This document shows, piece by piece, positions 19,975 to 61,414 of a DNA stretch of 64,000 nt. Every line of letters starts with the position of its first letter. Position 1 is the stretch's first letter. The stretch is taken from assembly GCA_044346175.1 (NCBI GenBank), contig JBIIZQ010000005.1:20818-84817 (forward strand), read 5' to 3'. The DNA is from Vampirovibrionales bacterium (GTDB lineage: Bacteria > Cyanobacteriota > Vampirovibrionia > Vampirovibrionales > JAJTHC01). Below the pieces are notes generated by a model. That model made no database searches. It was not told the origin of the DNA and was given only the letters and a program-made list of their open reading frames with translations. The position numbers and the translations under genes are program-made.

Positions 19975-21171
19975 ATGATGATGCGTCTCTCTTCTTTAGC
20001 TTCACCTATGGCGTTTAGTGCCACAAACCGCTTAAGTCGTTCTCAGCAAACACCTAACACGCAAGTACAAAGCCGATTTGGCGATGCAGGATGCCCTGTC
20101 TGTATTTCTCGTGCTGCACTGAGTGATACGGTCGAAAAGCTTGTTAAAGGCGATGTTGTGATGCCCTCATCCGTCATGGCGAATGTATTGAAAAACGTAG
20201 ACCCCAGCATCCAACGTCCTGAGCAAGTACAGGCACGTATTCCGCACTTTAAAGCAACACGCTTAGCCCCCATTCGTTCAAGTGATGTACCTGCACTGAT
20301 GCTTACCACCTTAGGGCTTCCTGACCCTTTGAAAAAGGATGTCATTAGAGGCATGAAGCACTATGAAAATGTCACTCAGTATCCTGATGTCCCTGTACAG
20401 GCTGTCGCAGTGCCTCAAGATGAAGCGGTTGCTGCCTTTACAAATCGTAAAGCAGGTACCGATGATGCACACCAGGCTCAAATGTTGGCAAAATGGCTTA
20501 ACCCTGACACTCAAAAAGCCAATACCCACCGGTTTTTTGTAGACCTTGTGCCTGTGCCTTTAAAGCAAACGCTTGAAGCCAAGCAACATGCCGATTTGCC
20601 TCAAACGCTTACCGTGGTTCATCATACCGTGAGTGGTGAGGGTCGTATCAATGGCGAGGTTAAAAAGATTCCCGGTGGTTTGACGACCCTTGGTGTACTT
20701 TCCATGAAAAAAACAGGTCATGACCACAGCCAGTTGTACATATTCCATAACAAAGAACTCCCTGGTATGGAAGGGTTTGGACAGCCTGCCGCAGGGTTGA
20801 TGAATGTGATTGCCATGGTTGCAAACCGTGAAGAAGGCTTCAAACAGGTACAATCTTTATCGGTTCGTGTGCCTAAAGACCAACCTGACCTTAAACACTA
20901 CATCCACAAACTTGCACAAAAAGTAGATACGCCTTTAAAAAAAGAAGTGAAGGATGGCGGAGAAGTCCTAACATTTGAGCATGTTTCAGGGTTTAAAGGA
21001 CACATGGACAAGCTTGAAGAAGCCTACAATGAAATCTATAAGCACCATCAAAAAGACCTTGGTACGAATACGCTTGCGCCTGCTACCTTCCAGTTTTTAC
21101 ATGCCATTCGTCCCTCTCAGTTTCTTTCTAAGGATGCTGCAAATGCCAATGCTTTTGCATTAAAGCCTTAA
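19975..21171 (+). CDS. Hypothetical protein (398 aa)
   Basis: A long ORF following a 1.15-kb AT-rich non-coding gap. No recognised motifs. Confidence 0.4.
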   Translation: MMMRLSSLASPMAFSATNRLSRSQQTPNTQVQSRFGDAGCPVCISRAALSDTVEKLVKGDVVMPSSVMANVLKNVDPSIQRPEQVQARIPHFKATRLAPIRSSDVPALMLTTLGLPDPLKKDVIRGMKHYENVTQYPDVPVQAVAVPQDEAVAAFTNRKAGTDDAHQAQMLAKWLNPDTQKANTHRFFVDLVPVPLKQTLEAKQHADLPQTLTVVHHTVSGEGRINGEVKKIPGGLTTLGVLSMKKTGHDHSQLYIFHNKELPGMEGFGQPAAGLMNVIAMVANREEGFKQVQSLSVRVPKDQPDLKHYIHKLAQKVDTPLKKEVKDGGEVLTFEHVSGFKGHMDKLEEAYNEIYKHHQKDLGTNTLAPATFQFLHAIRPSQFLSKDAANANAFALKP

Positions 21172-21252: not shown

Positions 21253-22803
21253 GTGCCATTGATTCTCTGTCTGCCTGTCTGTGGGAAAGCTTTTATGACA
21301 CTTGCTGTCACCTCTCATATGCCCTCCTATGCCACAGTACAAGCCCCACGAGGTGCATTTCCTCAGCGGGTTGATAATCTTAATAGCACACCCCTTGCCC
21401 TTGATAGTTTCTTTTCACGTACCGACTCTGCCCTTTACGCCTACCCTAAACAAAATAATCCTATCGCTCCTCACTCTGATGTATTTACCTCTGTCACGTC
21501 AATAACAAGCGATGTAACCAAAGTGCCTGTTTGGTCGCAGACACTTTACGGAAGTGGTGGTATCAATGCAGCAGGACGTACTATGTCTGAAGCCTCTCGG
21601 AGAGATGCCACACGTCATAATCCCTTCAGGCTAGAGTCCCATCCACCACAAAAGCCTTCACCGTCTTCTTCTCCAGATACCCTAGAAGAACAAAAAAATT
21701 ACGTACCCGTTACCGCACTTCAAGTTTCGGCACCCCTCTTGGAACTGCGTACTCAAAGTGAGCATGCCACCTCCAAGCGAGAGAATACAAAAACGCTTTT
21801 CCATTTTGATTTACCTGTGAGTGGCATTCTGGTTGCTTACCTAACACGTTATTATCATTTGAATCATCATCCAACACTCAACACGTGTCGCCAAGTGGGT
21901 CAATTGCTTGCAAAAGGACAGAAGCTCCAAAAACTTGTCCCGAAAACATTACAAGAAGCGGATGCATCTCTCAGTTCTCCCATACGCTACGACCTCCTTG
22001 CTTCTCCTGAAGCACTCTATGATAAAAACAAAAGTATCAGGCGTACACTCCTTCACCAAGCAGATACCTTATTCAAGGACCGTCCTGCACTGCTCCAAGC
22101 GTATAAAGAACTCATTGCTAGCCATGCAAACCAAATTGCAGCTTCGAGTAAAGAGGAACAACAAAGACAAGCACGCAAGGGGATTCATCAGTTACCTGGT
22201 AAACTTTTAACGCATGAGCTTCCCCAAACGTGGGAACCCAATAAAAGCCTTAAGCTAGCCTATACGCAAGCGGCTGAAAGTTTAGAACATAACCGAAAAG
22301 CAACTTGGCAAACACTCCATGAAGCCTTAGAAAAAACCCTTCAAGTACAAGCGGAACATACTCACTATGCAAAGGCATGGCATGCTTTAAATAAAGAGCG
22401 GCAAGGGATGCTTAACCTCATGGAGAGCGATGCTCCCCAAGCACAGGGCTTTAAACTAGGGTTCAGTCCAAAGCTTTACCCTTTTAAGCAGTATGCTAAA
22501 GAGCTTGGTTTATCACCTGATACTTACAGTAAACAAGCTGCTTGGCGACCGATGGTAGCCCTTCATCAGTTTTTAGCAGATAGCCATAAGAGTATGGCGC
22601 AAAAGCTGCATCAAGCAGGGCAAATTCAACACTTGGGTACTCGTTGGGCAGGCTTTGCCGAGACGTTTCGTCTTTCACAGAAGCGTGCCGTTCAGTTTGC
22701 GAATGTGGAGTCTTGGATTATGGGCGTTGCTACAGTGGGCATGATTACCCTAGAAAGACGGGTTCATCAGGCGAGTGAACGTCGTGACCAAGCACAAGCC
22801 TAA
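21253..22803 (+). CDS. Hypothetical protein (516 aa)
   Basis: A long ORF with no recognised motifs, co-directional with 19975..21171. Confidence 0.4.
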   Translation: MPLILCLPVCGKAFMTLAVTSHMPSYATVQAPRGAFPQRVDNLNSTPLALDSFFSRTDSALYAYPKQNNPIAPHSDVFTSVTSITSDVTKVPVWSQTLYGSGGINAAGRTMSEASRRDATRHNPFRLESHPPQKPSPSSSPDTLEEQKNYVPVTALQVSAPLLELRTQSEHATSKRENTKTLFHFDLPVSGILVAYLTRYYHLNHHPTLNTCRQVGQLLAKGQKLQKLVPKTLQEADASLSSPIRYDLLASPEALYDKNKSIRRTLLHQADTLFKDRPALLQAYKELIASHANQIAASSKEEQQRQARKGIHQLPGKLLTHELPQTWEPNKSLKLAYTQAAESLEHNRKATWQTLHEALEKTLQVQAEHTHYAKAWHALNKERQGMLNLMESDAPQAQGFKLGFSPKLYPFKQYAKELGLSPDTYSKQAAWRPMVALHQFLADSHKSMAQKLHQAGQIQHLGTRWAGFAETFRLSQKRAVQFANVESWIMGVATVGMITLERRVHQASERRDQAQA

Positions 22804-24374
22804 AAAGCCATGACAGGTGCCATAATGGCATCCTTCATGCCATGGATGATTTTTTTGTCCTTCGGGCATCCCGTTGCTAACACACCCGCTAGGGTTGTTT
22901 TTTCTTCAACAGGATGGACAATATAATAGGGGCAGAGTCTTACTCGTGCTTCAAATGGATAAGCTTGTAGTGTGTCTGTATTCAGGGCATGCCAAGGTAC
23001 AACCTGCGTGTTGTGATAAGGCTGTAAAATATGAGGGGTTTGGTGAAAATCATCCAGAGCCTTCTGAAGGGCTTCAGCCCAACCCTGACTTGCGTGGTCA
23101 TGACCTATCACAACGCCTCTTGAACCCCAAGCTTGAGGCGAAAATCCAGAGGGTTTTATTACCCATTGCCGTGCTTTTTGACTTGCCGTTTTAAGCAAGT
23201 GCCAAGAGGCTAAGGGTTTACCCTGATAGACGAGTGTAGGCGTATACGCTGCAGAGGGTGGTAAAGGCGTGGGGTCAAGCACCCAAGTGGGTGGGATGAT
23301 AGCATCTAAAAGCGTGATAGCACAAGACGATTGTAGTAAGGGGTACTTGGTACGCATTTTTTGCCAAGAAAGCTCCCAAAAAGGCCGTAGTGCTGGATGA
23401 TGCCACAAAGCCGCCATCATTTTTTCCTCTAGGTGAGGTTTAATAGGTGGGCTACACACCAGCCATTGCTTTTTAATCGCATGAACGATTAACTCGGCGT
23501 TAGGTAACGAGGTGACATCAAAGCATTCAAAAAAACGATACAGGACATCTACACGGTGTACTTTGCCCTGAAAATCAAAATATAGCCCATCAGCAAGGGG
23601 AAAGAGGTCTTTAGGGTGCAGGGCTATTACGCCTGATTGCTCAAACCCGCCTAGGGCTTGCGTAATGAAGTACTCCCATTCTGGTGCATAATCCTTCGCT
23701 TCATCAGAAATGCACACCACAATATGAGGAAAAGGCTGTCCAAACGTTGTAATAGCTTGGCGACGTTTTTCGGAAAGCCCTGTTTGAACCAAAGCTCGAA
23801 AAGCCTGAAGCCATGTGGTGGCTAAATCCTTAGAGGCCGGTGGTAGATAGGGGTTACCATCCATGTCATGGTAATAGGACTGAAGTGCCTGCGTAAAACC
23901 CAACCCGCCAGGAATGGCATCCACTTCACAAAGGGTTAAGGTGTCCCCCTCACCCCAAAGTAAATCAGGACGAATGACCAAGGGGATGTGGCTTTTTTGT
24001 CGTTTGTGGCGTGCAAGGTCAATCACCATTTGTGGTTTTCCTTGGTCAAGCCACTGAGAAACCCAAAGTGGTACCTGCTCAGGGTGGGTTTGTTTCCAGC
24101 TTTGTTCGTAAAGGGTATCCAATGCGGTCAGCCACCAATGTAGTGCGTCTCCTATGGCTGCTAGCTTTGAAGTAATGGCTTCAGGGAGTGGTAAAGGATA
24201 GGCTGCTAACTTCCAAGAGGGTGTATGGGCTACGACCTCTTGGAAGTTAGCCTGCCCCTGATACAACCCCTCCCAAGTAGGGAGTGCTGTCGGTAAGGGG
24301 ACGGGTCGTATGATTGGCTCATCACTAAGCGTATGACTCAAAGCGGTGCTGTAAGAAGCAGAGGAAAGTGTCAT
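22800..24374 (-). CDS. Hypothetical protein (524 aa), possibly an ATP-grasp-like or circularly permuted ligase fold (speculative)
   Basis: A long ORF. The C-terminal half has weak resemblance to ATP-grasp-like families. No firm motif. Confidence 0.35.
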   Translation of the reverse strand: MTLSSASYSTALSHTLSDEPIIRPVPLPTALPTWEGLYQGQANFQEVVAHTPSWKLAAYPLPLPEAITSKLAAIGDALHWWLTALDTLYEQSWKQTHPEQVPLWVSQWLDQGKPQMVIDLARHKRQKSHIPLVIRPDLLWGEGDTLTLCEVDAIPGGLGFTQALQSYYHDMDGNPYLPPASKDLATTWLQAFRALVQTGLSEKRRQAITTFGQPFPHIVVCISDEAKDYAPEWEYFITQALGGFEQSGVIALHPKDLFPLADGLYFDFQGKVHRVDVLYRFFECFDVTSLPNAELIVHAIKKQWLVCSPPIKPHLEEKMMAALWHHPALRPFWELSWQKMRTKYPLLQSSCAITLLDAIIPPTWVLDPTPLPPSAAYTPTLVYQGKPLASWHLLKTASQKARQWVIKPSGFSPQAWGSRGVVIGHDHASQGWAEALQKALDDFHQTPHILQPYHNTQVVPWHALNTDTLQAYPFEARVRLCPYYIVHPVEEKTTLAGVLATGCPKDKKIIHGMKDAIMAPVMAF

Positions 24375-24400: not shown

Positions 24401-25621
24401 TTAGGAAGATACGAGGCTGGCATCTTGAGCAACAGCAAGTGCCGCCGTAACGTAGGCCTCTAATTTCGGTAACACGTTTGCCATGACTTCAGCACGAGTC
24501 CCTTTTACGCTACAACCAGCTGCCATGGTGTGTCCACCACCTTGGTAGTAATGTTCTGCAAAGTGTGAAACATCGATGCGTGGTGTGAGGCTTCTAAAGC
24601 TTATTTTGGTAAGGTTAGGCGTATTCTCTTTAAAAAAGGCACACGCTTGCACCCCTTTTAATTGACGAAGCACATCAATCCCACCTTCAGTATGTTCTTC
24701 ACACGCATTTAAACTTTCTAAATCTTCGGGTGAAACCCAGCTATGGGCAATCGCCCCTTGGCATATCAATTCAGTACGCTCAATGACCCGCCCCATGAGT
24801 TTAAGTTGGCACAAAGGGGTTTCTTCGTAAATATCACGATACAATAAATGCCCCTCGGCACCCGCTTCGGTTAAACGCTTTGCTAATTCAAACACCTCAG
24901 GGGTACTATTGGGGTATTTAAAATTGCCTGTGTCGGTCATTAAGGCGGCGTAAAGATTCACTGCAATTTCTCGAGTAAAGGGTACCTTCATGGCATCAAT
25001 TAAATGTGCCACGACCTGCCCAGTGGCACTGAGTTCAACATCTACCAGATTCAGCGTTCCAAAACGCTCGTTACTTACATGATGGTCTAAGTTGACTCGA
25101 ATAGGTGCTTTGTCAAAAATCTGTCCATTAAACCCTAAACGTGCTTTGGAGCCACAATCAAAGCTTAAGCTCATGTCATAAGTATTCAAGTAGTGTGATT
25201 GATGCAACTCAGATTGCAATACGACATCAATCCCAGGTAGTCTGTGGTATATATCGGGCTTTTTGCCTTCCATTGCCACATGCAATACCTCAATATGAGG
25301 GTAATGCGTGATTAACGCACTTCTTAATGCCAGCATAGACCCCAGCGTATCCCCATCAGGATTGACATGCACCGTCATGAATACTGTACGTGCCTTTCCA
25401 AGCAAGTCAGCCACCTGCTGATAATCTGCCAAAGTAGGTGTAGGGTGCAAGGAATGGGAAGATGAATGGGAGTGGGGGTGCGTTATCATGCGAGTGAGTG
25501 AGAGAGAAGGATGCGAGCGTAAAAGAACATTCGCACAGTGTGACAAAAAAGAATGGACCCTAATGGTTAAGCCTATACACGAATAAAAACAGGGTGCCAA
25601 GATAAAGTGTGAGTTCGACAC
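24401..25621 (-). CDS. DHH/DHHA1 phosphoesterase (NrnA-like nanoRNase/pAp phosphatase; candidate c-di-AMP/pApA phosphodiesterase)
   Basis: DHH motifs HVNPDGDTLGS and NLDHHVSN, and the DHHA1 GGGH motif (YYQGGGHTMAAG). The N-terminal ~60 aa (His/Ser-rich) is probably not translated. Confidence 0.75.
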   Translation of the reverse strand: MSNSHFILAPCFYSCIGLTIRVHSFLSHCANVLLRSHPSLSLTRMITHPHSHSSSHSLHPTPTLADYQQVADLLGKARTVFMTVHVNPDGDTLGSMLALRSALITHYPHIEVLHVAMEGKKPDIYHRLPGIDVVLQSELHQSHYLNTYDMSLSFDCGSKARLGFNGQIFDKAPIRVNLDHHVSNERFGTLNLVDVELSATGQVVAHLIDAMKVPFTREIAVNLYAALMTDTGNFKYPNSTPEVFELAKRLTEAGAEGHLLYRDIYEETPLCQLKLMGRVIERTELICQGAIAHSWVSPEDLESLNACEEHTEGGIDVLRQLKGVQACAFFKENTPNLTKISFRSLTPRIDVSHFAEHYYQGGGHTMAAGCSVKGTRAEVMANVLPKLEAYVTAALAVAQDASLVSS

Positions 25622-25763: not shown

Positions 25764-27854
25764 TCACTCAATACTACCTACGGCATTGACCTGAATATCT
25801 GGAATTAACTCCGAGTAAGACAGCACGGAAATCATGGGTAAGTGGCGGTCAAGGAGCTGATAGAGAGGAAGTCGAATGCGAGGGGAACACAGAATGACAG
25901 GAACACGGTCATACTGCTGTTGCACGGCTTGAAGCGTTTGGGCAGTGACTTCAACCAGTTGTTGGACTTGTGCTGGATTAAGTAAAAACATGGTACCTAG
26001 TTCAGTACGCTGACAGGAATCATCCAGTGTGCGTTCCCAATCGTTGGAGAGTGTAATGGCGGTAATACTCTTGTTTTGGTCTGCTTGCATGACACAAATT
26101 TGTCGTCCCAAAGCCGAGCGGATGCGTTCGGAGAGGACATCAGGTTCTTTGCTGAAACGTGCATAGTCGCTCAGACGCTCAAAGATAAACTGCACATCCT
26201 TGATAGAGACCCGCTCACGGATAAGATTGACAAAGATTTTACGTAAATCGTTGGGTGTAAGCATTTGAGGTACAAGCTCTTGGACGAGAGAAGCGTCATG
26301 CTGGCGTACAAGCTCCATCAGCTTGAGTACATCCATTTTGGTCATGACTTCATCGACGTACTTAATGGTGATTTCCTGCAAGTGGGTAATCACAACATCG
26401 GTGGCTTCCACAGCGTGGGCTTGAATTTCAGGCGGAATCTGTTCAGGTTCCAGCCAAAAAGCAGGGGCATTAAATGAGGGGTCAATGTCTTGAACCACGT
26501 CTGCTGGAGGCTCCTGTCCCGTAGACTGGTAAATAGGTGCCAGAATCATATAACGCCCAGGATACACATTCCCAGAACCTACAGGGTTTCCTCGAATTGA
26601 AATAAGATATTCAAACTGTCCTATGGACATACTATCCAAAATACGCACATTGGGCAGAATAAAACCAAGTTCATCCGTAAGGCGGTTACGTAGCCCCGCA
26701 ATTTTACCTAAAAGTTGGCCATTCTGTTCGGGGTCAGCGATTTGGAGCAAGTTCATACCCACTTGAACACTCACAGGGTCAACACCAAGCTTTTGATACA
26801 TACGGTTGGGGTCAACCATTTGGTTCATTTCTTCTTTTACGCCCTCCAGTTGTGCCATTTGTTCGGTCATGTCTTTATTCAGAAACACACTAACCCCAAG
26901 CACAATAAGCCCTATTGCCAAAGGGAGGAAAACATACCAAGGTAATCCTGTAATGGGTGCACTGAGTGCAATAAGAAGCATGAACAAGCCTGAGAAAATC
27001 AAGCTAAAGGGTTTTAATTGAAGGGTTTGTAAAAGGTCTTTTGCCAAACTATCTGTTTGGGCGGTGGAACGTGTCATGGTAATACCAGCGGACACCGACA
27101 TCATTAAGGCAGATACTTGTTGGGTTAAACCATCCCCGATGGTCAAAATGGAGTATTTATTGATAGCCTCTTCAAAGGGCATTTGCTTAATGGCAATCCC
27201 AATGGCTAATCCTCCAATTAAGTTAATCAGGGTAATAAGAATCCCAGCAATGGCATCCCCTTTTACGAACTTCATGGCACCATCCATGGCACCATAAAGG
27301 GCGGATTCTCGTTGTAATTCTTCACGACGACGCTGGGCTTCATCAGGACTGATGAGACCTGCGTTAAAGTCGCCGTCAATCACCATCTGTTTTCCAGGCA
27401 TAGCGTCCAATGCAAAACGAGCCCCGACTTCTGCCACACGCTCTGACCCTTTTGTGATGACCATGAAGTTAACAATAATGATGATGATGAAAATAATCAT
27501 CCCCACCAATAAATCGCCCCCTGTGACAAACTTCCCGAAGGCGATAATCATTTCTCCTGCTTCCCCGTGGGCAAGAATGGCTCGGGTGGTTGCAATCCCA
27601 AGGGCAAGACGAATCATTGTACCCACCAAAATGACAGAAGGGAAAGTCGCCATTTCAACTGGGTTTTTGACGAAAAGCGACATCATCAATAAGAGAATCC
27701 CAAGGGCGATGTTGATACAAATAACCACGTCAATCAGCCACTCGGGTAACGGCATGAGGATGATAAGAATCAAGCCCAAAATACCGAAAACCAGTGCAAA
27801 TTCACTGGGTTGCGGGAGGGTAAACCCCATGGGATTATCAGAAGCCATCATCAT
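25764..27854 (-). CDS. flhA: Flagellar/T3SS export apparatus protein FlhA (SctV family)
   Basis: Full-length alignment to FlhA, including FGKFVTGGDLLVGMIIFIIIIIVNFMVITKGSERVAEVGARFALDAMPGKQMVIDGDFNAGLI and GAMDGAMKFVKGDAIAG. Confidence 0.85.
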   Translation of the reverse strand: MMMASDNPMGFTLPQPSEFALVFGILGLILIILMPLPEWLIDVVICINIALGILLLMMSLFVKNPVEMATFPSVILVGTMIRLALGIATTRAILAHGEAGEMIIAFGKFVTGGDLLVGMIIFIIIIIVNFMVITKGSERVAEVGARFALDAMPGKQMVIDGDFNAGLISPDEAQRRREELQRESALYGAMDGAMKFVKGDAIAGILITLINLIGGLAIGIAIKQMPFEEAINKYSILTIGDGLTQQVSALMMSVSAGITMTRSTAQTDSLAKDLLQTLQLKPFSLIFSGLFMLLIALSAPITGLPWYVFLPLAIGLIVLGVSVFLNKDMTEQMAQLEGVKEEMNQMVDPNRMYQKLGVDPVSVQVGMNLLQIADPEQNGQLLGKIAGLRNRLTDELGFILPNVRILDSMSIGQFEYLISIRGNPVGSGNVYPGRYMILAPIYQSTGQEPPADVVQDIDPSFNAPAFWLEPEQIPPEIQAHAVEATDVVITHLQEITIKYVDEVMTKMDVLKLMELVRQHDASLVQELVPQMLTPNDLRKIFVNLIRERVSIKDVQFIFERLSDYARFSKEPDVLSERIRSALGRQICVMQADQNKSITAITLSNDWERTLDDSCQRTELGTMFLLNPAQVQQLVEVTAQTLQAVQQQYDRVPVILCSPRIRLPLYQLLDRHLPMISVLSYSELIPDIQVNAVGSIE

Positions 27855-27949
27855 GTTTCAGTAGTTTCTAGGACATAAGTCTCAAAAAGTATCAAGGGTA
27901 TGTAAAAAGATAAACGTTCGTCTCAACCTAATGAATGCTCACGCTCACT

Positions 27950-28930
27950 TTAGGAGGGGTTATCAGAAGCTTGGATAGGTGCACCAACCACCGTCTGATT
28001 TAAGCCCAACAAACTCTTTAGCGATTCTAACTGAGTACTAAACCTAGCATCAAGCATACCATTTTTTGTTTCTATCATACAGCTACCCAATTCAACATTA
28101 AGGTTTTCCTCTACGCTAATTTTACCTTCTAAACGAAATGGATTCGGGTGTTCCGCAAGCCATTGCTCAACCACGACGATATTTTCAGGATGGACATGCA
28201 CAATAAGCTGCTTGGCGTTACGGTCACTTTGACGAAGGCTGTCTTTTAACAAATGTAAAACAAGCTCCGGGTCGCAGGTTGCTTCAGTTTTAATAATTTT
28301 TTCTACTAACTGGTAAACCAATGGTAAGAGTTCGTCTTTGACGGACTCAAAAGCTTTTTCTTTGGCAGACAAAATACTCTCAATACCATCATGTAGGGTC
28401 AAAAGCTGCTCCTCTAAGCGTCGTTCGGCTTCTTCATACCCTTGTTTAAGCCCCGCTTCGTAACCATCTTGATACCCTTGTTGACTCGCTTCCTGATAAG
28501 CGGACTCTCTAAGCACTTGCAGGTCTTCTTGAAGTGTATCGGCAAGAGGCAAAGCACGAGGCGATTGAGGACTATCTTCTGCTAAACCGTACTCGGTATG
28601 CACTGCGACTGTATGGTTTGAAAGTGTCTCATGAGTTTCATGAGGCAAACTATCGGCACTAAAAATGTCAGAAATAGGGGGTGTTTGAAAGGAGGCTGTT
28701 TCCTCTATGATAGATGCCGCATGAGGATACTCAGCTGTAGGATGAAACCCTTGGGTAGGCATTGACGCAGAGGGCATGGGATACTGTGCATAGAGTGGTT
28801 GGGTGCCTAAGGTTTCTTCTTCATCGAGGTAAGAGGGTGCTTGTAAAGCAGCATCTATAACCCCTCCCCCTAGAGGAGGCGTGCTACTGTGCATGAGCTG
28901 GGCAAGTTGTTCTTTTGTTAATTTAGCCAT
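27950..28930 (-). CDS. FliH/SctL-like export ATPase regulator (putative)
   Basis: The central E/Q-rich segment QQGYQDGYEAGLKQGYEEAERRLEEQ has the Gx3G-type repeats typical of FliH/YscL/ATP-synthase b-like proteins. It lies immediately upstream of flhA. Confidence 0.45.
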   Translation of the reverse strand: MAKLTKEQLAQLMHSSTPPLGGGVIDAALQAPSYLDEEETLGTQPLYAQYPMPSASMPTQGFHPTAEYPHAASIIEETASFQTPPISDIFSADSLPHETHETLSNHTVAVHTEYGLAEDSPQSPRALPLADTLQEDLQVLRESAYQEASQQGYQDGYEAGLKQGYEEAERRLEEQLLTLHDGIESILSAKEKAFESVKDELLPLVYQLVEKIIKTEATCDPELVLHLLKDSLRQSDRNAKQLIVHVHPENIVVVEQWLAEHPNPFRLEGKISVEENLNVELGSCMIETKNGMLDARFSTQLESLKSLLGLNQTVVGAPIQASDNPS

Positions 28931-29165: not shown

Positions 29166-30533
29166 TTAAACTTGAGGTGGTGCCATGGTGGTATTGGCTG
29201 ACTGTGCTGTTTCTGGGTGCTTAATACTGTAAAGGTATTTAGATAGGGCTTCAAGCTCACTCTTTTTACCAATCACAGGAGGCATAATCGTGGTGTAAGG
29301 ATTTTGCTTGGGGTCAAGGTTTTGCATGGTTTGCAGTAAAGCCAGAATGGCTTTTTCATCGCGCTCACCCAAGAGTTGCTTCATACTACGATACCCATCC
29401 ACTGTATGACAGCTTGCACACTGATTACGGAACATATTCTGCCCTAACTCAGCGGGGTTTTGTGTTGCCCATTTGAAAGAGGCAACATACCCTTTTTCAA
29501 TGAGTTTAGGTACTTCCGACTTTAATACACCGTTGGAATACATATAGTTGTAAACCACATAAGGTTTACGCAACATTTCTCGAGACCACTCTGTGGTACT
29601 TGTAACCAGCAACCCACATACCAAAAAGAGGAAGGAAGCCACTGTGGTAAAGCCTCGTGCGTTGAGATAAGGGCCCACAAGTACAAATCCCATAACCGTT
29701 GCTGCCGCAACGACAGCCATATAGATAGCACGGGTTAAAACTGAGAAGTTTCCAGCCGCAGCCGTTTGAAAACCGTGTGTTGCGTTTTGAAGCACATCAG
29801 GAGGAAGGCTCAAGAAGTACCAAGCTAACCCGATAGGCGCCGTGATGGCGGCAGGGATAAACCACTTGGACGCATAACGCATCATTTTCGCACGGAATTC
29901 GGGGTCTTTGAGCTGAGACGTTGTTAAGAAAGCGTACATACCCGCCATGGCAAAGGTCATACCCACACGAATGACGATAGCAGGTCCATACCCTTCATTA
30001 AGCCAACCATCAAACCAGTAGTGTGAAGTGGCCCACTTACCAGGGGTTAACATGAAAGTTAAAATCCCGTTAATGGTAAAGAGTGTGAGGTAGGAAATAA
30101 TCGCATACCAAATGGCAACCGTTACGTGTTGCTTGCGAGGCATGTGGTTCCAAGTGTAGTGATACACCGCAAAGGTCGCAATTTCGGTTAAGAAGAACAA
30201 GTACTCAATCGCCCAAGCGAGGGAGAAGTTCTGAATCAGCGTTGCAGTACCATTGGGGCTTGCTAAACTGATAGACCACCAAATGCCCACCCCTGTTACA
30301 GCACCAAAAACGGTGGTAACAAGTAAGAAGAACAAGGAGTGCTTCTTAAGGAAGTCGTACATTTTTTCATCGTTGTTTTTGTAAGCGAGCCACTCTGTTA
30401 AAGCAAAGAAGGCACCGCCACCCACTGCAAAGTGTGAGACAAACACGTGAAGAATAGAAATAATCCCAATAATCCATGTACCGCCCAACGTCGGCACGTC
30501 CCATAAAGGATAGTTCACGATAAGTACCCCCAA
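29166..30533 (-). CDS. Polytopic membrane protein with a C-terminal monoheme cytochrome c domain (bc-complex-associated)
   Basis: About 10-12 TM helices, then a soluble C-terminal domain with the CASCH heme-binding motif. The N-terminal region is paralogous to ORF 32230..33348. Confidence 0.6.
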   Translation of the reverse strand: MGVLIVNYPLWDVPTLGGTWIIGIISILHVFVSHFAVGGGAFFALTEWLAYKNNDEKMYDFLKKHSLFFLLVTTVFGAVTGVGIWWSISLASPNGTATLIQNFSLAWAIEYLFFLTEIATFAVYHYTWNHMPRKQHVTVAIWYAIISYLTLFTINGILTFMLTPGKWATSHYWFDGWLNEGYGPAIVIRVGMTFAMAGMYAFLTTSQLKDPEFRAKMMRYASKWFIPAAITAPIGLAWYFLSLPPDVLQNATHGFQTAAAGNFSVLTRAIYMAVVAAATVMGFVLVGPYLNARGFTTVASFLFLVCGLLVTSTTEWSREMLRKPYVVYNYMYSNGVLKSEVPKLIEKGYVASFKWATQNPAELGQNMFRNQCASCHTVDGYRSMKQLLGERDEKAILALLQTMQNLDPKQNPYTTIMPPVIGKKSELEALSKYLYSIKHPETAQSANTTMAPPQV

Positions 30534-31606
30534 ATTGTGAATACAATCATACCAACCAACACAGCGACACCATAGGCAGTCATGATGGCAGAACGGGTTT
30601 TACATTGACCATTATCAATGAAGGGTGCAAGACCAAGTCCACCAGCAATCGCACCAAAAAACATCATGCCCACTTGTTCCCCTTCAATGAATCCAATCAT
30701 AGGAGGTAACAACTTTAGGAACTGGAACATCGACAAGAAGTACCACTCGGGCTTAATCCCTTTAGGGGCAGCTGCAAAGGGGTCTGCTTCAGGTCCTAAT
30801 CCCCAAGGGCTTAAGCACACAATCGCAACAACAAAGTTCACTACAACAAGCCACACCATTAAATCCTTGAGCATAAAGTCAGGGAAAAACTTCTCTTCTT
30901 TTTGTTCGGCAGGAGGCAGTGCAACATAAGATTCTGGTTTGGAAATCCCGTGAAGTTGTACCATTAAAAGGTGAAGTCCCATTAACCCCATCAATGCCAA
31001 GGGAAGCAAAATGACGTGAATCACAAAGAAGCGTGAAATCGTAGCTTGTCCCACTTCAGCCCCGCCACGGAGCATACTACCCATAATTTCACCTACGAGA
31101 GGACTCTTTGAAGTGATATCAAGACCAATCTTTGAGGCAAAGAAGGCGACTTCGTCCCAAGGGAGCAAGTACCCCGTAAATCCAAAACCCATCAGTAACA
31201 CCAACATGATAAGCCCTGAAAACCAAGTGAACTCACGAGGGCTACGATAGGCTTTCATGAAGTAAGCACTAAACATGTGGATGAACGCAAAAAGAATGGC
31301 AAGGTTTGCTCCCCAACTGTGCATGGAACGTACCAACCATCCAAAATCAACTTTGGTGTTAATTGCATTGACAGAAGCATGAGCCGACTCTATCTCAGGG
31401 ATGTAATGCACCATCAATAAGCCACCAGAAACAAACTGAATGATGATTAACACCATCAAAATACCACCCATGTAGTACCACACGGAGTGTTTATGGACAG
31501 GGACTGTTTTTTTACCTGCAAGCTTCATAAATTCTGCAATGGGTAAACGGGCATTGACCCAGTTAAATGCTGCCATTTTTAAGGCATCAGTATCAAGTGC
31601 CATCAT
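30515..31606 (-). CDS. Cytochrome b6-type cytochrome b fused to subunit IV (PetB/PetD- or QcrB-like)
   Basis: VDFGWLVRSMHSWGANLAILFAFIHMFSAYF and PREFTWFSGLIMLVLLMGFGFTGYLLPWDEVAFFASKI align with b6/PetB. The C-terminal PEWYFL is the subunit IV/PetD motif. Confidence 0.85.
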   Translation of the reverse strand: MMALDTDALKMAAFNWVNARLPIAEFMKLAGKKTVPVHKHSVWYYMGGILMVLIIIQFVSGGLLMVHYIPEIESAHASVNAINTKVDFGWLVRSMHSWGANLAILFAFIHMFSAYFMKAYRSPREFTWFSGLIMLVLLMGFGFTGYLLPWDEVAFFASKIGLDITSKSPLVGEIMGSMLRGGAEVGQATISRFFVIHVILLPLALMGLMGLHLLMVQLHGISKPESYVALPPAEQKEEKFFPDFMLKDLMVWLVVVNFVVAIVCLSPWGLGPEADPFAAAPKGIKPEWYFLSMFQFLKLLPPMIGFIEGEQVGMMFFGAIAGGLGLAPFIDNGQCKTRSAIMTAYGVAVLVGMIVFTIWGYLS

Positions 31607-31611
31607 AGGGG

Positions 31612-32142
31612 TTACGCCTCCTTGCCTGCACGAGGTAACTTAGATACAACAACATCCCCATTGACCACCTCTGCTTTGAAAGCAACCAGGGGTTGAGGTG
31701 GAGGACCTGAAATATTTTTGCCTGAATTGGGGTCATATTTACCACCGTGACAAGCACAGAAAATGACACCCTCAGGTTTATCGTATTGAACCGTACATCC
31801 TAAGTGGGAGCATATGGCACTAAAGGCATGGAACGTACCAGCATCATCACGGATAATGACACCAGGTTTTTTACCAAACTGGAAGTTCTTTCCTGTGCCT
31901 TTAGGAATGGTATCGACTTTACCAAGGTTAACGCTTGTGACCTCAGGGCCAGCTTCTTCTTCACGAGGTAATAAATACTTGATGATAGGGAAAGCCGCAG
32001 CACCACCCCAAACAACAGCGACCCCAGCAAGAGCGACGGTTGTAAGAAACTGACGACGTGCCTTTTCGGCAACCCCAGGGCACATTTCACAGGAGGTTGT
32101 TGTGTTGACCTCAGGTGCTTCGGGCGTTACATGAGAAACCAT
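31612..32142 (-). CDS. Rieske [2Fe-2S] iron-sulfur protein
   Basis: Box I CSHLGC and box II CACHGGKYD, plus an N-terminal TM anchor. Confidence 0.85.
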   Translation of the reverse strand: MVSHVTPEAPEVNTTTSCEMCPGVAEKARRQFLTTVALAGVAVVWGGAAAFPIIKYLLPREEEAGPEVTSVNLGKVDTIPKGTGKNFQFGKKPGVIIRDDAGTFHAFSAICSHLGCTVQYDKPEGVIFCACHGGKYDPNSGKNISGPPPQPLVAFKAEVVNGDVVVSKLPRAGKEA

Positions 32143-44680: not shown

Positions 44681-45226
44681 ATGACAGACTGGCAAAACCT
44701 TGAAACCCCTATTAGAAATCTGAATGCTTCAGGCAAGAAGTATTATGTTATTGGTGACTACAAGAAGCATGGTCAAAGACGGCTGTATGCTACCAAGATA
44801 GATTATAATCAAGTCAAACAAGGTGATCTTGTGTTTCCAGCAGGAGCAGGAGGGATAAACTTTAAGAACTTACCAGCGAGTAATCATGTTCGTGGTTTCA
44901 AAACACCAACAACCTTTGGTCTAGGCGAACTACGAGTCTATGATTTGTCAAAAGGGTTTGGTCGTGGTTTAAACTATGAAAGCACGCAAATGCAGTATGA
45001 CCCTTTGGGTAATCCGATTGGTCAAGCTGATATGACCAGTATTCCCGCCACGGTACTCTATGGTGTCATAAGAAAGACTACTCCTGATGATGCAGGAAGT
45101 GTAAATTTTGAAGAAGGTATGGAAAAGATGAATGGGGGATGCCCGATAGATATTGATGTAGACGAAAATAATGATGGCAAAACGGATTATACGGTGCGAC
45201 ATCAAGGTAACAGGATTTGTAAGTAA
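44681..45226 (+). CDS. Hypothetical small protein (181 aa) in an AT-richer patch
   Basis: An ORF with no recognised motifs. It is followed by ~400 bp of non-coding DNA. Confidence 0.35.
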   Translation: MTDWQNLETPIRNLNASGKKYYVIGDYKKHGQRRLYATKIDYNQVKQGDLVFPAGAGGINFKNLPASNHVRGFKTPTTFGLGELRVYDLSKGFGRGLNYESTQMQYDPLGNPIGQADMTSIPATVLYGVIRKTTPDDAGSVNFEEGMEKMNGGCPIDIDVDENNDGKTDYTVRHQGNRICK

Positions 45227-45644
45227 TATACCTTAGATACGGTGAACATTTGCCTAGAGGGTGTAGCGTCGATAGCATCTCACTCTAGGGGGAGGGGCGT
45301 TTGTCATGTCGATACTTGTCACGTCATAGCTGGCTGTAAAGAGGTATGGCAAAAGAGGATACAGTATAACTTCTTGTCAACAGCCATGCCGATATAGGTT
45401 CAAAATCCAGAGGATTGTGAAGTGTGGCAAGGGAAGGAGAGAGCTTCTTGATTGTTTCACATACAAGTAAAGGGTGCTGGGGAGGCTTTATGATCCCAAC
45501 ACGAGTACGTATATCTCCTATGGTTAAACGAGATATGCACCCTTCACACACCATAAATACCCTTCCAACTCGATACTAGTAGTACTATAAAGCTTTTTTA
45601 TCGCTTGTTTTACTGATGTACACTGTTGGAAATGACCCGTTTTT

Positions 45645-48600
45645 ATGATGAACTCAACGAACTTTTCCTCCCAAGGTGACTTTTCTCAAGATACCCCTAC
45701 CCAAGAAGCTGGGGGAGGACAAAGCACCTCGTTTTCAAAAAAAGAAGTACGTCGTACCCCTCTTGTCCCGCCTATTGCTTGGCTCTGTATGGGCGTTGTA
45801 CTCATTGGAGTTGTGTTTTTTGCGTTTCAGTCAAACCCAACGCTTCATGCCTTTTTGAGTGGGGTGACTGGGGAATCAAGTACCAGCGTTGGGAGTGTTG
45901 CCGAAAACTATTTCGGGCAGCTTTCTCGTCCGCTCATTCCTGAAAGCTCACTGTATTTACCCCTAGGGGTTCAGGCAATTATCTCTTTGGGGATTATTGT
46001 GGCCATGCTCACCATTGGTTGGGCAAAACCGCAAGCCCGCCGTATGATTATGCTGCTGACAGTATTCAGTGTGACACGTCAACTTATTTGGCGTGCTGTG
46101 GATACGATGGACTTTCAGACACAATCTCCCGTGGTACTTGCCGTAGGTTATGGGATTTTTGTGGCTGAAGTGCTTTCGTTTATTCATCTTATTTTTGGCT
46201 ACTTTCAGCTCTGGAGTCCGACGCATCGAGAAGCCCCAAAAATCAATACGTCTGACCCGTCTCGTTTGCCCTTTGTGGATGTATTTGTCCCGAGTTATAA
46301 CGAGCCTGTGAGTGTGGTTTACCGAACCTTGGTAGGGTGTATCGGTATGGATTACCCTAATAAGACGGTTTATTTGTGCGATGACAAGGCACGTCCTGAA
46401 ATGGCACAATTGGCTGAGAAACTAGGGGTACGTTATTTGTCTCGTGTGGATAACGTCCATGCAAAAGCAGGCAACTTAAACAACGCTTTGCGTCACTCTC
46501 GTGGGGAGTATTGCGTTATTTTTGATGCCGACCATGTGCCTTGCAAAAAGTTTATCAATGAGATTATCGGGTATTTTCAAGACCCCGAAATTGGCTTTGT
46601 CCAAACGCCTCAGCACTTTTTCACTCTTGACCCATTTCAACGTAACTTGTTAGCCGAGCAAATCGCTAATAACGAGCAAGACTTATTTTATCACGTGATT
46701 CAACCAGGGAATGACCACTGGGGAGCGGCGTTCTTTGCTGGGAGTGGTGCGATGTTCCGTCGTCAAGCTCTCAATGATGTTGGTGGGTTTGCCACTGAAA
46801 CCATTACCGAGGACTTCCATACCAGTATTCGTGTGCAAGCCTTGGGTTGGAAGTCTGCCTACCATCCTAAAGACCTTGCCGCAGGGCTGGCTCAAGACTC
46901 CTATGCCGACTTTGTCAAGCAACGTCTACGTTGGGCAAGAGGGATGACCCAGGTTCTCTTTTATGATAACCCTCTCTTTAAGCGCGGCTTAAATTTGGCA
47001 CAGCGCATGTGTTACTTCACCAGTATTTTATACTTCTTCAATGCGATTCATCGTGTGGTATTCCTTACGGCACCTCTTTTCTTCCTTGTGTTTGGTTTAA
47101 TGACCATTAACGCAGGCTTCCTTGAGGTTGTGGTGTACTATTTACCTTCCTTTGTGTGCTTGTTTTTTGGCTACAGTGTGCTTACGTATGGTTTCAGACA
47201 CACGTTCTGGTCAGAAGTGTATGAATCTGCAACGTGTATTGACCTTTTATGTGCCACGGTAGGTACGATTCTTAGCCCTAAGGGTAAAATCTTTAACGTG
47301 ACCCCCAAGGGTGGTACCAACGCACAAACGGTGTTTCATTGGCAGTCTGTGTGGGTACAGATTTTTCTTACCGTGGTAAGTGTCTTTGGGATTTTTATGG
47401 GGGTTTTCCGAGCCTTAACCACTCCCAGTTATGTAGGCGGTATTTTTACGAACCTCTTCTGGACAGTGTATAACATTACCTTGCTTGTTGGGGCTTTCTT
47501 TGTGGCTCAAGAGCGTCCACAACTACGTTTAAACCCTCGTATTGACCGTCGTATCCGTTGTGACCTTCGTCTTTTGGATGGGTCTATCGCTGTAGGGTAC
47601 ACCACCAATATTTCCGAGAATGGGCTTGCCATGGAGTTTGAAGAACCCGTGCCTGTTTCAGGGACGATGGCACTCAAAGTACTGGATTGGGAAACCAACG
47701 AAATTAGCTTCTTGAGCGTCCAGGCGGTTCGTAGCGTGATGGATGAACAAGGCAAGCATTATGTCGGGTTCCGAGTCGTCAACCGTACCGAGGAGCAACA
47801 CCGCAAGCTTATTTATCATATGTTTGGGTCTGCCGAAGCGTGGCACCACGACCAAACGGCACTTACACCGCTGAGTGCCTATAAATCCTTCATTGAAAGT
47901 CCGATGCGTCTTTCCACCATTGAGCAGATGACCTTCCGCCGTCGTAGTCCCCGTTTCCGTGCCAGCTTACAAGTGCGTCTTTTCAGTGGTACGCAGGATT
48001 ACTCCGCTACAACGATTGATGTTTCTGAAAGTGGCTTGCTCCTAATGATGTATCATCCTAAGGAAAACCTATTACAATCACGGGTTGATATTCAAATCCA
48101 GTGGAGTAATGGCTCCGTAGGTACTTTACAAGGGATTGTAAAACGGGTTGACCCCATGCTAGGTACCCCTGGTGCTTTCAAACTTGCCCTTAACTTTGTT
48201 GACCTCAGTCGTGAGCAGCGTCAAGCACTGATTAGTCAATTATTTGGTCCTCGTCCTGGGGTTGTACGTGTGGCACCGCCTTCACACCTCATGATTGGCT
48301 GTAAAGTACAAAACGCCCAAGGACAAACCGTAGCCGGTGTGACGCAAGAGGTGAGCGAAATGGGTATCAGGCTTCTTCTGAATCAATCGCTTCCTGTTGA
48401 GATGCACGAGGAAGTTTCCATTATGCTCCACTGGGAGCAAACACCCCATGTTAAAGCGGGAGGGTATCCTCCGCAAGAGATGGAACAAGTCCCTCAGTCT
48501 AAAGTGTATAAGACCATTGTGGTGGGGTATCAGCACCCCAGTGCAGGTAATCCTCGAGCGGAGTTATTGCTATACTTTAAGGACATTAACTTGCAAAGTC

Positions 48601-48665
48601 TGGATGAAATCTCACAGTACTTGCATCAAAGTAACACCTTACTTGAAGCCGCTCAACGAGGTTAA
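45645..48665 (+). CDS. Processive family-2 glycosyltransferase (cellulose-synthase/BcsA-like) fused to tandem C-terminal PilZ domains
   Basis: GT2 motifs are LCDDKARP (DD), FDADHVP (DxD), ITEDFHT (TED), and KQRLRWARG (QxxRW), with multiple TM helices flanking the catalytic domain. At least two PilZ units are present: (RIDRRIR...NISENG) and (RRRSPRFR...DVSESG). A third degenerate one may also be present. Confidence 0.75.
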   Translation: MMNSTNFSSQGDFSQDTPTQEAGGGQSTSFSKKEVRRTPLVPPIAWLCMGVVLIGVVFFAFQSNPTLHAFLSGVTGESSTSVGSVAENYFGQLSRPLIPESSLYLPLGVQAIISLGIIVAMLTIGWAKPQARRMIMLLTVFSVTRQLIWRAVDTMDFQTQSPVVLAVGYGIFVAEVLSFIHLIFGYFQLWSPTHREAPKINTSDPSRLPFVDVFVPSYNEPVSVVYRTLVGCIGMDYPNKTVYLCDDKARPEMAQLAEKLGVRYLSRVDNVHAKAGNLNNALRHSRGEYCVIFDADHVPCKKFINEIIGYFQDPEIGFVQTPQHFFTLDPFQRNLLAEQIANNEQDLFYHVIQPGNDHWGAAFFAGSGAMFRRQALNDVGGFATETITEDFHTSIRVQALGWKSAYHPKDLAAGLAQDSYADFVKQRLRWARGMTQVLFYDNPLFKRGLNLAQRMCYFTSILYFFNAIHRVVFLTAPLFFLVFGLMTINAGFLEVVVYYLPSFVCLFFGYSVLTYGFRHTFWSEVYESATCIDLLCATVGTILSPKGKIFNVTPKGGTNAQTVFHWQSVWVQIFLTVVSVFGIFMGVFRALTTPSYVGGIFTNLFWTVYNITLLVGAFFVAQERPQLRLNPRIDRRIRCDLRLLDGSIAVGYTTNISENGLAMEFEEPVPVSGTMALKVLDWETNEISFLSVQAVRSVMDEQGKHYVGFRVVNRTEEQHRKLIYHMFGSAEAWHHDQTALTPLSAYKSFIESPMRLSTIEQMTFRRRSPRFRASLQVRLFSGTQDYSATTIDVSESGLLLMMYHPKENLLQSRVDIQIQWSNGSVGTLQGIVKRVDPMLGTPGAFKLALNFVDLSREQRQALISQLFGPRPGVVRVAPPSHLMIGCKVQNAQGQTVAGVTQEVSEMGIRLLLNQSLPVEMHEEVSIMLHWEQTPHVKAGGYPPQEMEQVPQSKVYKTIVVGYQHPSAGNPRAELLLYFKDINLQSLDEISQYLHQSNTLLEAAQRG

Positions 48666-48789
48666 TCTAAACGTTTCAACACCAACCCCAACCCTACGCC
48701 TTCTCTTGGTTGATTCAAGAGGAGGCGTAGGGGGTTTTTAGCTTTGGCTTAGGCAAATAAAGGGAGGATGCTCCCTCTTAAGGGCTTGA

Positions 48790-49551
48790 CTATGCTAATT
48801 TGTAAGCGGGGAGTTGGAACAAGGGTAAACGAATACAGTCTGCGGGTGTGAGTTCAGTGGGGTCGTAACGAGCATCTAAGAGTCCGACGTGTTGATAGGC
48901 AGCACTTACAAGCTCAGAACAGAAAAAACGTGACGCATCCTCCTGGGTATAATCGTGGTGTGGATTTTTATTTTCTCGAGGGGTACCGAGTGGGTCAATG
49001 GCCGAGAGTGCTGCTTGAAACATATCGTAAGGTTTACCCAACTGGGTCTCAAGATACCGCTCAAAGGCTGGCATGACCGCAAAAAATCTCGGACGTATTT
49101 TCTGAGGTTCAAGGGGTAACCACCATATATCGCCTACATACCCACGGCATTTTTCCTCAAGGTCAATGGTTTGTACGCCATTAAACGTACCGCCTTGGTT
49201 GGCTTCAATCAGAGTCACGCATCCGTCCTCTTCACGACGTGCAACAACCGCAACGTGTGAAACCTCCGAGCGTGTCACCCACTGAATGATGCGACTAAAC
49301 GGTGCCACACCTCCAAAAGCAATCATATCCCCTATTTGCACTTGGGCGACTAAACGTTGTAACGGGGTCTGTGTGACGGCTTGCCATCTCGGTAAGGGTT
49401 GGGCATCCCAGAGAGGGTCTTGTAAAAGTCCAGCAAGCCAACGTTTGGGCTGTTGTAGTACCGCTTCACGAGCGGCTTTTTTTGCTTGGCATGTCTTTCG
49501 ATTCACATAACGTTGGAAGAGTTTCGGTGTGTGTGGATGGTGCATGACCAT
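48790..49551 (-). CDS. Permuted papain-fold (YiiX/YaeF-like, C92-type) putative amidase/peptidase
   Basis: GDMIAFGG...SRIIQWVTRSEVSHVAVV (His region) followed by C-terminal FCSELVSAAY (Cys region) matches the circularly permuted NlpC/P60-like arrangement. Confidence 0.45.
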   Translation of the reverse strand: MVMHHPHTPKLFQRYVNRKTCQAKKAAREAVLQQPKRWLAGLLQDPLWDAQPLPRWQAVTQTPLQRLVAQVQIGDMIAFGGVAPFSRIIQWVTRSEVSHVAVVARREEDGCVTLIEANQGGTFNGVQTIDLEEKCRGYVGDIWWLPLEPQKIRPRFFAVMPAFERYLETQLGKPYDMFQAALSAIDPLGTPRENKNPHHDYTQEDASRFFCSELVSAAYQHVGLLDARYDPTELTPADCIRLPLFQLPAYKLA

Positions 49552-60928: not shown

Positions 60929-61414
60929 ATGAAAATAACCATTCAAAAAAAAGTGTTTTTTGCGGCTCCTCTGGATTTAGTCTTCAAAACAGTTTCGGCT
61001 GAAGATATTTTACCTAAAGTACTTTTAGGCTCTTTGGGCTTACCAAGCGTAGTGAGAACTTCCGATGTTGTGGGGCATTGGGAAGCTATAGGAAGTACAA
61101 GACGGGTTCATCTAGCCGATGGCAATGAAGTGAAAGAAAGGCTTATAGTTTATGAGCCTCTTACAAAATTTGCCTATGAGGTTTATGAAGGCACGCATCC
61201 AGCTTTTCATTTTTTGGTCTCTAGGGCTGAAGGTACTTGGCATTTTATCCCTCAGGATGACGGGGTTGAGGTTATTTGGAGATATACTTTTTTTGTGAAA
61301 CATGTATTTTTTATTGGGCTTTTATGGATTTTTGTTCACGTTTTTTGGTCGAGATATATGGATGTTTGTTTAAATCAACTTAAACGATTAGTTTCTTCCA
61401 GTAAGGTGATATGA
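60929..61414 (+). CDS. Small SRPBCC-like (START/Bet v1/polyketide-cyclase-type) protein, putative
   Basis: About 160 aa. The predicted alpha/beta pattern and sequence (VFKTVSAEDILPKVL...WHFIPQDDGVEVIWRYTF) are reminiscent of Polyketide_cyc2-type domains. Weak call. Confidence 0.35.
   Translation: MKITIQKKVFFAAPLDLVFKTVSAEDILPKVLLGSLGLPSVVRTSDVVGHWEAIGSTRRVHLADGNEVKERLIVYEPLTKFAYEVYEGTHPAFHFLVSRAEGTWHFIPQDDGVEVIWRYTFFVKHVFFIGLLWIFVHVFWSRYMDVCLNQLKRLVSSSKVI

Follow-up and report, generated by a model that had tools for sequence, protein, structure and literature searches.

A BcsA-type synthase with three PilZ-fold units from the Vampirovibrionales

The Vampirovibrionales are predatory or epibiotic, non-photosynthetic relatives of the cyanobacteria (Melainabacteria), and BcsA is the textbook case of an enzyme activated by cyclic di-GMP (c-di-GMP) through a single PilZ domain. 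A gene of this order in which a BcsA core is followed by further PilZ sequence raises the question of how many of the added units can bind c-di-GMP, and what they do for the synthase. The gene lies at 45645..48665 (+) of a 64,000 nt stretch of DNA, referred to here as the window, from a Vampirovibrionales bacterium (GCA_044346175.1, contig JBIIZQ010000005.1, positions 20,818 to 84,817). The list of open reading frames (ORFs) and their translations shows a single, uninterrupted and complete ORF of 1006 aa plus stop, and the protein is an intact BcsA-type processive synthase of glycosyltransferase family 2 (GT2). Behind the BcsA core are two PilZ units with complete c-di-GMP-binding motifs and a third that is degenerate.

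Pfam scans place GT2 families at aa 211-497 (catalytic domain aa 211-433), together with Cellulose_synt and with PilZ in three stretches. The best NCBIfam match is TIGR03030 (CelA, the cellulose-synthase catalytic subunit) with 620.9 bits over aa 107-748, under the curated cut-off of 699.1, and PRK11498 is matched with 524.2 bits, under its cut-off of 992. PgaC is the next family at 92 bits, and the cellulose-synthase models lead PgaC, NodC and others by >500 bits. Because these scores are the best by far yet remain under their cut-offs, the synthase represents a divergent BcsA subfamily. The best solved relative is E. coli BcsA (7lby, 9fmv; 414.9 bits over query aa 133-736), R. sphaeroides BcsA scores 331 bits over query aa 109-642, and identity to solved BcsA is ~30% over aa 109-736. 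The alignment to E. coli BcsA 7lby is confined to aa 133-736, and the segment of aa ~740-1006 is therefore extra relative to BcsA; an earlier note on this DNA had counted more PilZ units here than in canonical BcsA, and the alignment bears this out.

Conservation was assessed in an alignment of the query with 32 homologues at 39-75% identity, and residues are called invariant where they are identical in all 33 sequences. An AlphaFold2 model of the full-length protein built on this alignment has a mean pLDDT (per-residue confidence score) of 78.5 and a pTM (overall fold confidence score) of 0.75, with helices and strands arranged as in BcsA. Foldseek comparison of the model with the PDB returns BcsA structures as all of the top eight matches (including 9b8v, 9fnn and 4p00) with target-normalised TM-scores of 0.65-0.78, the match to 4p00_A having an E-value of 2.5e-42 and a target-normalised TM-score of 0.78.

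The BcsA core (aa 107-622; 45963..47510, +) consists of N-terminal transmembrane (TM) helices, the GT2 domain, interface helices, the gating loop and C-terminal TM helices, and most of its modelled helices and strands have a pLDDT of 85-95. The earlier note's description of a processive GT2 enzyme with DD, DxD, TED and QxxRW motifs holds throughout: D246D247, D294xD296, T388E389D390 and Q426xxR429W430 are all present and invariant, and TM helices stand on each side of the glycosyltransferase domain in the model, as the note had also proposed. The gating-loop motif F550xV552T553xK555 and the HAKAGNLN and QTPQHF stretches are likewise invariant. The FFCGS motif of BcsA reads FFAGS in the query.

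Each PilZ unit was scanned separately against the Pfam PilZ model (PF07238, cut-off 22.5 bits). PilZ1 (aa 626-727; 47520..47825, +) is the canonical PilZ domain of BcsA; it scores 37.7 bits, directly follows the last TM helix, and falls within the region aligned to the PilZ domain of E. coli BcsA. Its motifs are R628LNPR632 (R628xxxR632) and N655ISENG660 (N655xS657xxG660), and their motif residues are invariant. In R. sphaeroides BcsA without c-di-GMP, E371 pairs with the first Arg of RxxxR (PMC8892547); the counterpart of E371 in the query is D418, and this position is D or E in every sequence of the alignment.

PilZ2 (aa 765-867; 47937..48245, +) is an extra canonical PilZ domain that scores 48.7 bits. 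In the query its motifs are R766RSPR770 (R766xxxR770) and D792VSESG797 (D792xS794E795xG797); R766, R770, S794, E795 and G797 are invariant in a domain with a mean column identity of 52%, and the first position of [D/N]xSxxG is E in 24 sequences, D in six and Q in three. Profile-profile comparison by hhalign relates PilZ2 to PilZ1 with 98.9% probability, and AlphaFold2 models a beta-barrel plus helix at aa 776-867 (pLDDT ~90).

PilZ3 (aa 874-994; 48264..48626, +) is a degenerate PilZ-fold domain. It falls under the Pfam cut-off with 16 bits against 22.5 (E 0.016), in a partial match to profile positions 10-56. Its sequence contains two arginines at the wrong spacing, R870xxxxR875, followed by V-A-P-P, and its second motif reads E902VSEMG907. 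The invariant R875 occupies the first Arg position of RxxxR in the profile alignment; where the second Arg would be expected, all 33 sequences have S, T, P or N, and the V-R-V-A-P stretch around R875 is nearly invariant. The D/N position is taken by the invariant E902, followed by S904, E905 and a mostly conserved G907. The sub-alignments of PilZ2 and PilZ3 match each other in hhalign with 99.5% probability (E 3e-22, 105 columns), and AlphaFold2 models a third beta-barrel with a C-terminal helix at aa 874-994 (pLDDT ~88), in which an insertion of the query at aa ~930-950 has low pLDDT. PilZ3 is thus a genuine PilZ homologue despite failing Pfam, and the strength of its hhalign match to PilZ2 suggests that it arose from that domain. 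The statement that each unit carries RxxxR and D/NxSxxG is accurate for units 1 and 2 and incorrect for unit 3, which has just R875 and E902VSEMG907, and the Pfam PilZ profile divides the units in the same way. Since only two units have complete motifs and the third is degenerate, a protein with three c-di-GMP sites is unsupported.

PilZ2 and PilZ3 together make up the C-terminal extension beyond BcsA, which spans ~270 aa (267 aa analysed). Twelve of its residues are invariant, and five of these are in PilZ2 (R766, R770, S794, E795 and G797) and five in PilZ3 (R875, A877, E902, S904 and E905); with ten of twelve being PilZ motif residues, the extension points to function and not to decay. A separate AlphaFold2 model of aa 740-1006 has a pLDDT of 82 and a pTM of 0.49. 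Foldseek matches it across both halves (241-277 columns) to the two-domain PilZ proteins MotI (5vx6), PlzA (7mie), YcgR (5y6f), MrkH (5kgo) and PlzD (2rde), at TM-scores of 0.3-0.48 and root-mean-square deviations (rmsd) of >10 Å.

All three PilZ units are under purifying selection. In comparison with the closest orthologue, which comes from a metagenome-assembled genome (MAG; JBJTUH01) and has 94% protein and 80% DNA identity to window positions 45602-48666, the ratio of nonsynonymous to synonymous substitution rates (dN/dS) is 0.009 for the core, 0.009 for PilZ1, 0.022 for PilZ2 and 0.069 for PilZ3, values that are rough because dS is saturated. The possibility that the gene is a pseudogene or a truncated copy, which the earlier note had named as something that would change its interpretation, is ruled out by the intact ORF, the invariant motifs and the dN/dS range of 0.009-0.07. 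The poorly conserved part of the protein is instead the N-terminal ~100 aa (45645..45944, +), which consists of a low-complexity stretch and one predicted helix at aa 41-63, with pLDDT <50 for aa 1-39 and 63-91. It is 78% identical to the closest orthologue, compared with 96% for the core, and the homologues are 40-60 aa shorter than the query.

The three-unit layout is a conserved family across the order Vampirovibrionales and not an isolated oddity. A first homologue search recovered ~100 clusters (at 90% identity) of 943-987 aa, with a query coverage of 84-96% and identities of 43-75%; those that are named derive from Vampirovibrionales, Vampirovibrio sp., Candidatus Melainabacteria or Cyanobacteriota MAGs, and are annotated just as 'glycosyltransferase', 'PilZ domain-containing protein' or 'cellulose synthase (UDP-forming)'. 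When hidden Markov models of the units were applied to the top 120 matches of at least 700 aa, three units were found in 101, two in 18, and one unit in a single sequence, a fragment. Searching 1.84 billion representative proteins with a profile built from the extension gave 957 matches at E <= 0.001 and 11 at E <= 1e-30. Unit 3 was present solely in these 11 strongest matches, so that three-unit proteins are limited to a narrow group.

Proteins with two units are widespread. The 18 among the top matches have the order GT2-PilZ-PilZ and keep RxxxR and [DNE]xSxxG in both units, and among 96 further homologues of one two-PilZ synthase a strict count assigns two units to 63 and a single unit to the other 33. 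Two-PilZ synthases are found in MAGs of Nitrospirota, Acidobacteriota (Blastocatellia and Polarisedimenticolia) and Thermodesulfobacteriota. Of two of their loci, those of P0150 (L013, 8001-11899) and P0132 (L014), one has the synthase flanked by another GT2 gene and a downstream BcsG-like (CBP_BcsG) gene, hinting at a modified cellulose, and in the other it is stand-alone; neither contains BcsB.

The loci of close relatives show what usually accompanies the three-PilZ synthase. In six of ten family loci (P0029, P0037, P0004, P0010, P0055 and P0097) the next gene after the synthase is BcsC-like. It starts 120-260 bp downstream and encodes a protein of 1218-1360 aa, which we identify as a BcsC-type outer-membrane porin because it combines numerous tetratricopeptide (TPR) repeats with a BCSC_C domain (37-47 bits in these loci, cut-off 23.5). 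In five of the six BcsC-linked loci the synthase is preceded by a multi-pass membrane protein of 158-205 aa with a weak Tic20-like match (22.9 bits); it has a conserved 'RFH' and a C-terminal 'GRTP..VT.NV.YWV', and could be an unrecognised partner of the synthase. Most relatives (L003, L005, L009-L012) share a conserved block composed of RecA, GH57 enzymes, an SLT/TPR protein, the small membrane protein, the three-PilZ synthase, the BcsC-like porin, SfsA and UDP-glucose dehydrogenase. A pilMN-secretin neighbour is seen in one family locus.

No BcsB-like gene is found within 8-10 kb of the ten related synthase genes or in the window, and no HlyD-family gene in the window or the ten family loci. 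The window, the P0001 locus (75% identity), the JBJTUH01 MAG and the P0089 locus have neither the BcsC-like nor the small membrane protein gene as neighbours. Outside the synthase gene there is no synteny between the window and the JBJTUH01 MAG, in which the orthologue has purL, purF and a pentapeptide protein gene upstream, and EamA, FtsY and PyrF downstream; the location of the synthase gene is unusually fluid between close relatives. The family normally has a bcsA-bcsC pair without bcsB, and the term 'stand-alone' used in the earlier note thus fits this locus and a few others and does not describe the family.

In the window the synthase is surrounded by housekeeping genes. Upstream are FtsH, a 269-aa ORF without family match, an S41 peptidase, a PlsC-type acyltransferase and a 181-aa soluble ORF, and downstream are a Peptidase_C92-like gene (-), ORFs of 190 aa and 86 aa without family match, an ABC permease and alanyl-tRNA synthetase (AlaRS). 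The absence of adjacent bcsB, bcsC and bcsZ is confirmed, with no Bcs partner gene within ~7 kb of the synthase. Pfam scans of window ORFs of at least 120 aa found no Bcs-partner, HlyD, GGDEF or EAL families, and no HD-GYP gene for c-di-GMP was seen in the 64 kb. BCSC_C has no Pfam match among the window ORFs, and tblastn searches of the window gave no match to the BcsC-like protein of one relative, to the small membrane protein encoded upstream of its synthase, or to other neighbours. The 181-aa ORF (44681-45226, +) was considered as a partner and rejected; it has no Pfam match and shows no relationship to the small membrane protein that the relatives encode ahead of the synthase. The 418-nt gap upstream of the synthase contains no riboswitch, the lone match (E 0.36) being attributable to chance. 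The permuted-papain amidase reported on the opposite strand does correspond to a downstream minus-strand gene (48790-49551, -), although its Peptidase_C92 match is weak (22.5 bits against a cut-off of 27, E 1.3e-4) and the assignment is tentative.

Several other features of the window were recorded. At 60929-61414 (+), 12 kb beyond the synthase on its downstream side, is a Polyketide_cyc2 (SRPBCC) gene; the same Pfam family occurs just upstream of the synthase cluster in the P0029 and P0037 loci (L003 and L005), and the window gene may be a remnant of an ancestral synthase neighbourhood. Genes for c-di-AMP signalling are present, as judged from a CdaA-type diadenylate cyclase (DAC domain) gene and a DHH/DHHA1 protein gene (15793-16767, +, and 24401-25621, -). 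The flagellar export genes FlhA and FliH adjoin cytochrome b and Rieske genes (25764-28930, -, and 30515-32142, -), and from these four genes the host appears to be a flagellated, respiring, non-photosynthetic member of its group. A lysine riboswitch (Rfam RF00168, 74.7 bits; 19270-19504, -) precedes a 683-aa ORF (16769-18820, -) without a Pfam match, which is perhaps a lysine transporter or biosynthesis gene that has escaped recognition. Four further ORFs are without a Pfam family at E <= 1e-5: 10486-12468 (+, 660 aa), 19975-21171 (+, 398 aa), 21253-22803 (+, 516 aa) and 22800-24374 (-, 524 aa).

How might the three units act together? We lean, by a narrow measure, toward an arrangement in which PilZ1 gates the enzyme as in BcsA, PilZ2 binds extra c-di-GMP, and PilZ3 acts as a non-canonical helper, with an altered dose-response. 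Following the gating mechanism set out in a review (PMC8892547), R628 of PilZ1 would tether the gating loop when c-di-GMP is missing, as in R. sphaeroides BcsA, and c-di-GMP binding at PilZ1 would free the loop and open the active site. PilZ2 is predicted to bind additional c-di-GMP because residues of both its binding motifs are invariant, which would place two receptor sites on the enzyme. Without the second Arg, PilZ3 would be unable to bind c-di-GMP canonically; it may pack, help PilZ2 or mediate interactions, in a role like that of the degenerate partner domain of YcgR, MotI and PlzA, although with the domain order reversed. The expected effect would be a changed response to c-di-GMP dose, through threshold, cooperativity or local nucleotide capture, and the multi-PilZ tail would do within the synthase what accessory receptors, BcsE of E. 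coli among them, do as separate proteins. Cooperative c-di-GMP control of the synthase is plausible. The product is most likely cellulose, made by an inner-membrane processive beta-glucan synthase; export probably proceeds via a BcsC-like porin, encoded elsewhere in this genome or absent from it, and would not involve BcsB.

A more elaborate version, which we regard as possible though doubtful, is that the order-wide joining of PilZ2 and a half-motif PilZ3 to BcsA makes the synthase itself a multi-site c-di-GMP receptor, in which PilZ2 and R875 might jointly clamp a c-di-GMP oligomer. If true, activation could be ultrasensitive or have two thresholds, or the tail could act as a nucleotide sink, and it would replace the role of separate proteins such as BcsE in proteobacteria. 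This would be a regulatory mode undescribed for any synthase-dependent exopolysaccharide system, and would extend to the two-PilZ synthases of Nitrospirota and Acidobacteriota.

Several observations weigh against the arrangement that we favour, with PilZ2 as a second receptor and cellulose as the product. The predominance of E over the canonical D/N at the first motif position of PilZ2 (24 of 33 sequences) means that its c-di-GMP affinity could differ or be lost, and the orientation of PilZ2 and PilZ3 is uncertain because the pTM of the C-terminal model is just 0.49. No diguanylate cyclase or phosphodiesterase gene for c-di-GMP is present in the 64-kb window. The TIGR03030 and PRK11498 scores lie under curated cut-offs, and FFAGS in place of FFCGS weighs on cellulose as the product.

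The extra PilZ domains could instead be structural or oligomerisation modules, serving in arrays or docking without sensing c-di-GMP and leaving control to PilZ1 alone. The lack of RxxxR in PilZ3 in all 33 sequences and the frequent E in PilZ2 are in keeping with this, as are the facts that one domain is usually non-binding in tandem PilZ proteins (bioRxiv 10.1101/2020.02.11.943704; bioRxiv 10.1101/814665), that the plant-conserved region and PilZ share overlapping space, and that Alg44 dimerises via PilZ (PMC8892547). However, R766, R770, S794 and G797 of PilZ2 are invariant while their surroundings diverge to ~30% pairwise identity, a pattern not easily accounted for if nucleotide binding had been lost, and the two-PilZ synthases of other phyla keep RxxxR and [DNE]xSxxG in both units. 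We consider a purely structural role rather unlikely. It is very improbable that PilZ2-PilZ3 is an output module that, once c-di-GMP is bound, contacts another machine, such as type IV pili or, in the manner of YcgR and MotI, the flagellar motor, and so couples polymer secretion to the arrest of motility. The best structural matches of the extension are indeed the two-domain motility regulators MotI, YcgR, PlzA and PlzD, and FlhA and FliH are encoded in the same window, but the low TM-scores and the rmsd of >10 Å reflect tandem barrels and not a common arrangement. The order is also reversed, canonical then degenerate here and degenerate then canonical in YcgR, and the family loci have no linkage to motility genes save for the one pilMN-secretin neighbour.

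The last alternative concerns the product and is compatible with either regulatory model: the enzyme may make a non-cellulose polymer, such as a mixed-linkage or modified beta-glucan, and its extra PilZ domains would then be part of a distinct exopolysaccharide system. Mixed-linkage glucans are a known product of BcsA-like enzymes (PMC5567048, PMC10374906), and the sub-cut-off scores (620.9 against 699.1 for TIGR03030, 524 against 992 for PRK11498), the change of FFCGS to FFAGS, and the lack of BcsB and BcsZ in the window are all consistent with it. Nonetheless, the lead of the cellulose-synthase models over PgaC, NodC and others is large, QTPQHF, HAKAGNLN, TED and QRLRW agree with BcsA, and the partner in relatives is specifically BcsC-like, so that a non-cellulose product appears distinctly unlikely.

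How, then, does this synthase compare with systems already described? It shares its core of TM helices, GT2 domain, gating loop and PilZ with BcsA of R. sphaeroides (4HG6/4P00) and E. coli (7LBY/9FNN), from which it differs in the ~270 additional C-terminal aa that form two PilZ-fold domains, in FFAGS, in its sub-cut-off scores, and in having no BcsB encoded nearby, either here or in the ten family loci. Cyanobacterial cellulose synthases also have bcsA without bcsB, and can have their partner genes dispersed over the genome, T. vulcanus being an example (PMC12430437, PMC8892547). The cyanobacterial 'type IV' bcs system (XcsA/Tll0007 with HlyD-like XcsB and TolC) belongs to the same broad Cyanobacteriota/Melainabacteria lineage and likewise has bcsA without bcsB, but XcsA is reported to have a single PilZ (PMC12430437) in contrast to the three units of the Vampirovibrionales family, and in place of the HlyD-like partner six of the ten family loci have the BcsC-like TPR/beta-barrel gene. 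The two-PilZ synthases of Nitrospirota, Acidobacteriota and Thermodesulfobacteriota (P0109, P0132 and P0150 among them) have a BcsA-like core at 36-45% identity with a second PilZ directly after the first, and differ in lacking the third, degenerate PilZ and in their neighbours, one of which is the downstream BcsG-like gene.

Tandem PilZ barrels with one canonical and one degenerate member are likewise found in YcgR, MotI/DgrA, PlzA, PlzD and MrkH, and in Bll4394 and SMc00999. These receptors are small soluble proteins in which the degenerate domain comes first, whereas the pair described here begins with its canonical member and is fused behind a complete BcsA already equipped with a PilZ. 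That PilZ domains evolve by tandem duplication is known (bioRxiv 10.1101/814665), and in the literature searched, surveys of PilZ architecture treat PilZ-PilZ just in small soluble proteins. A look through that literature, which leaves most subscription journals outside, for multi-PilZ cellulose synthases and for cellulose synthase, c-di-GMP or PilZ in Vampirovibrio or Melainabacteria turned up no description of this architecture.

The synthase does not represent a new type of system: each of its parts is a familiar domain, together they plausibly extend a known architecture, and the proteins already receive labels from automatic annotation. The absence of bcsB and the scattering of partner genes have been described before, and it is the PilZ-PilZ-degenerate-PilZ tail that, within the literature covered, makes this an undescribed BcsA subfamily of the Vampirovibrionales. 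It adds to the cell-surface biology of an order in which adhesion polymers may matter. With a BcsA of two complete PilZ domains and one degenerate one found order-wide, and two-PilZ forms widespread in other uncultured phyla, exopolysaccharide synthases would seem to vary more in their stoichiometry of c-di-GMP sensing than the proteobacterial models studied so far indicate.

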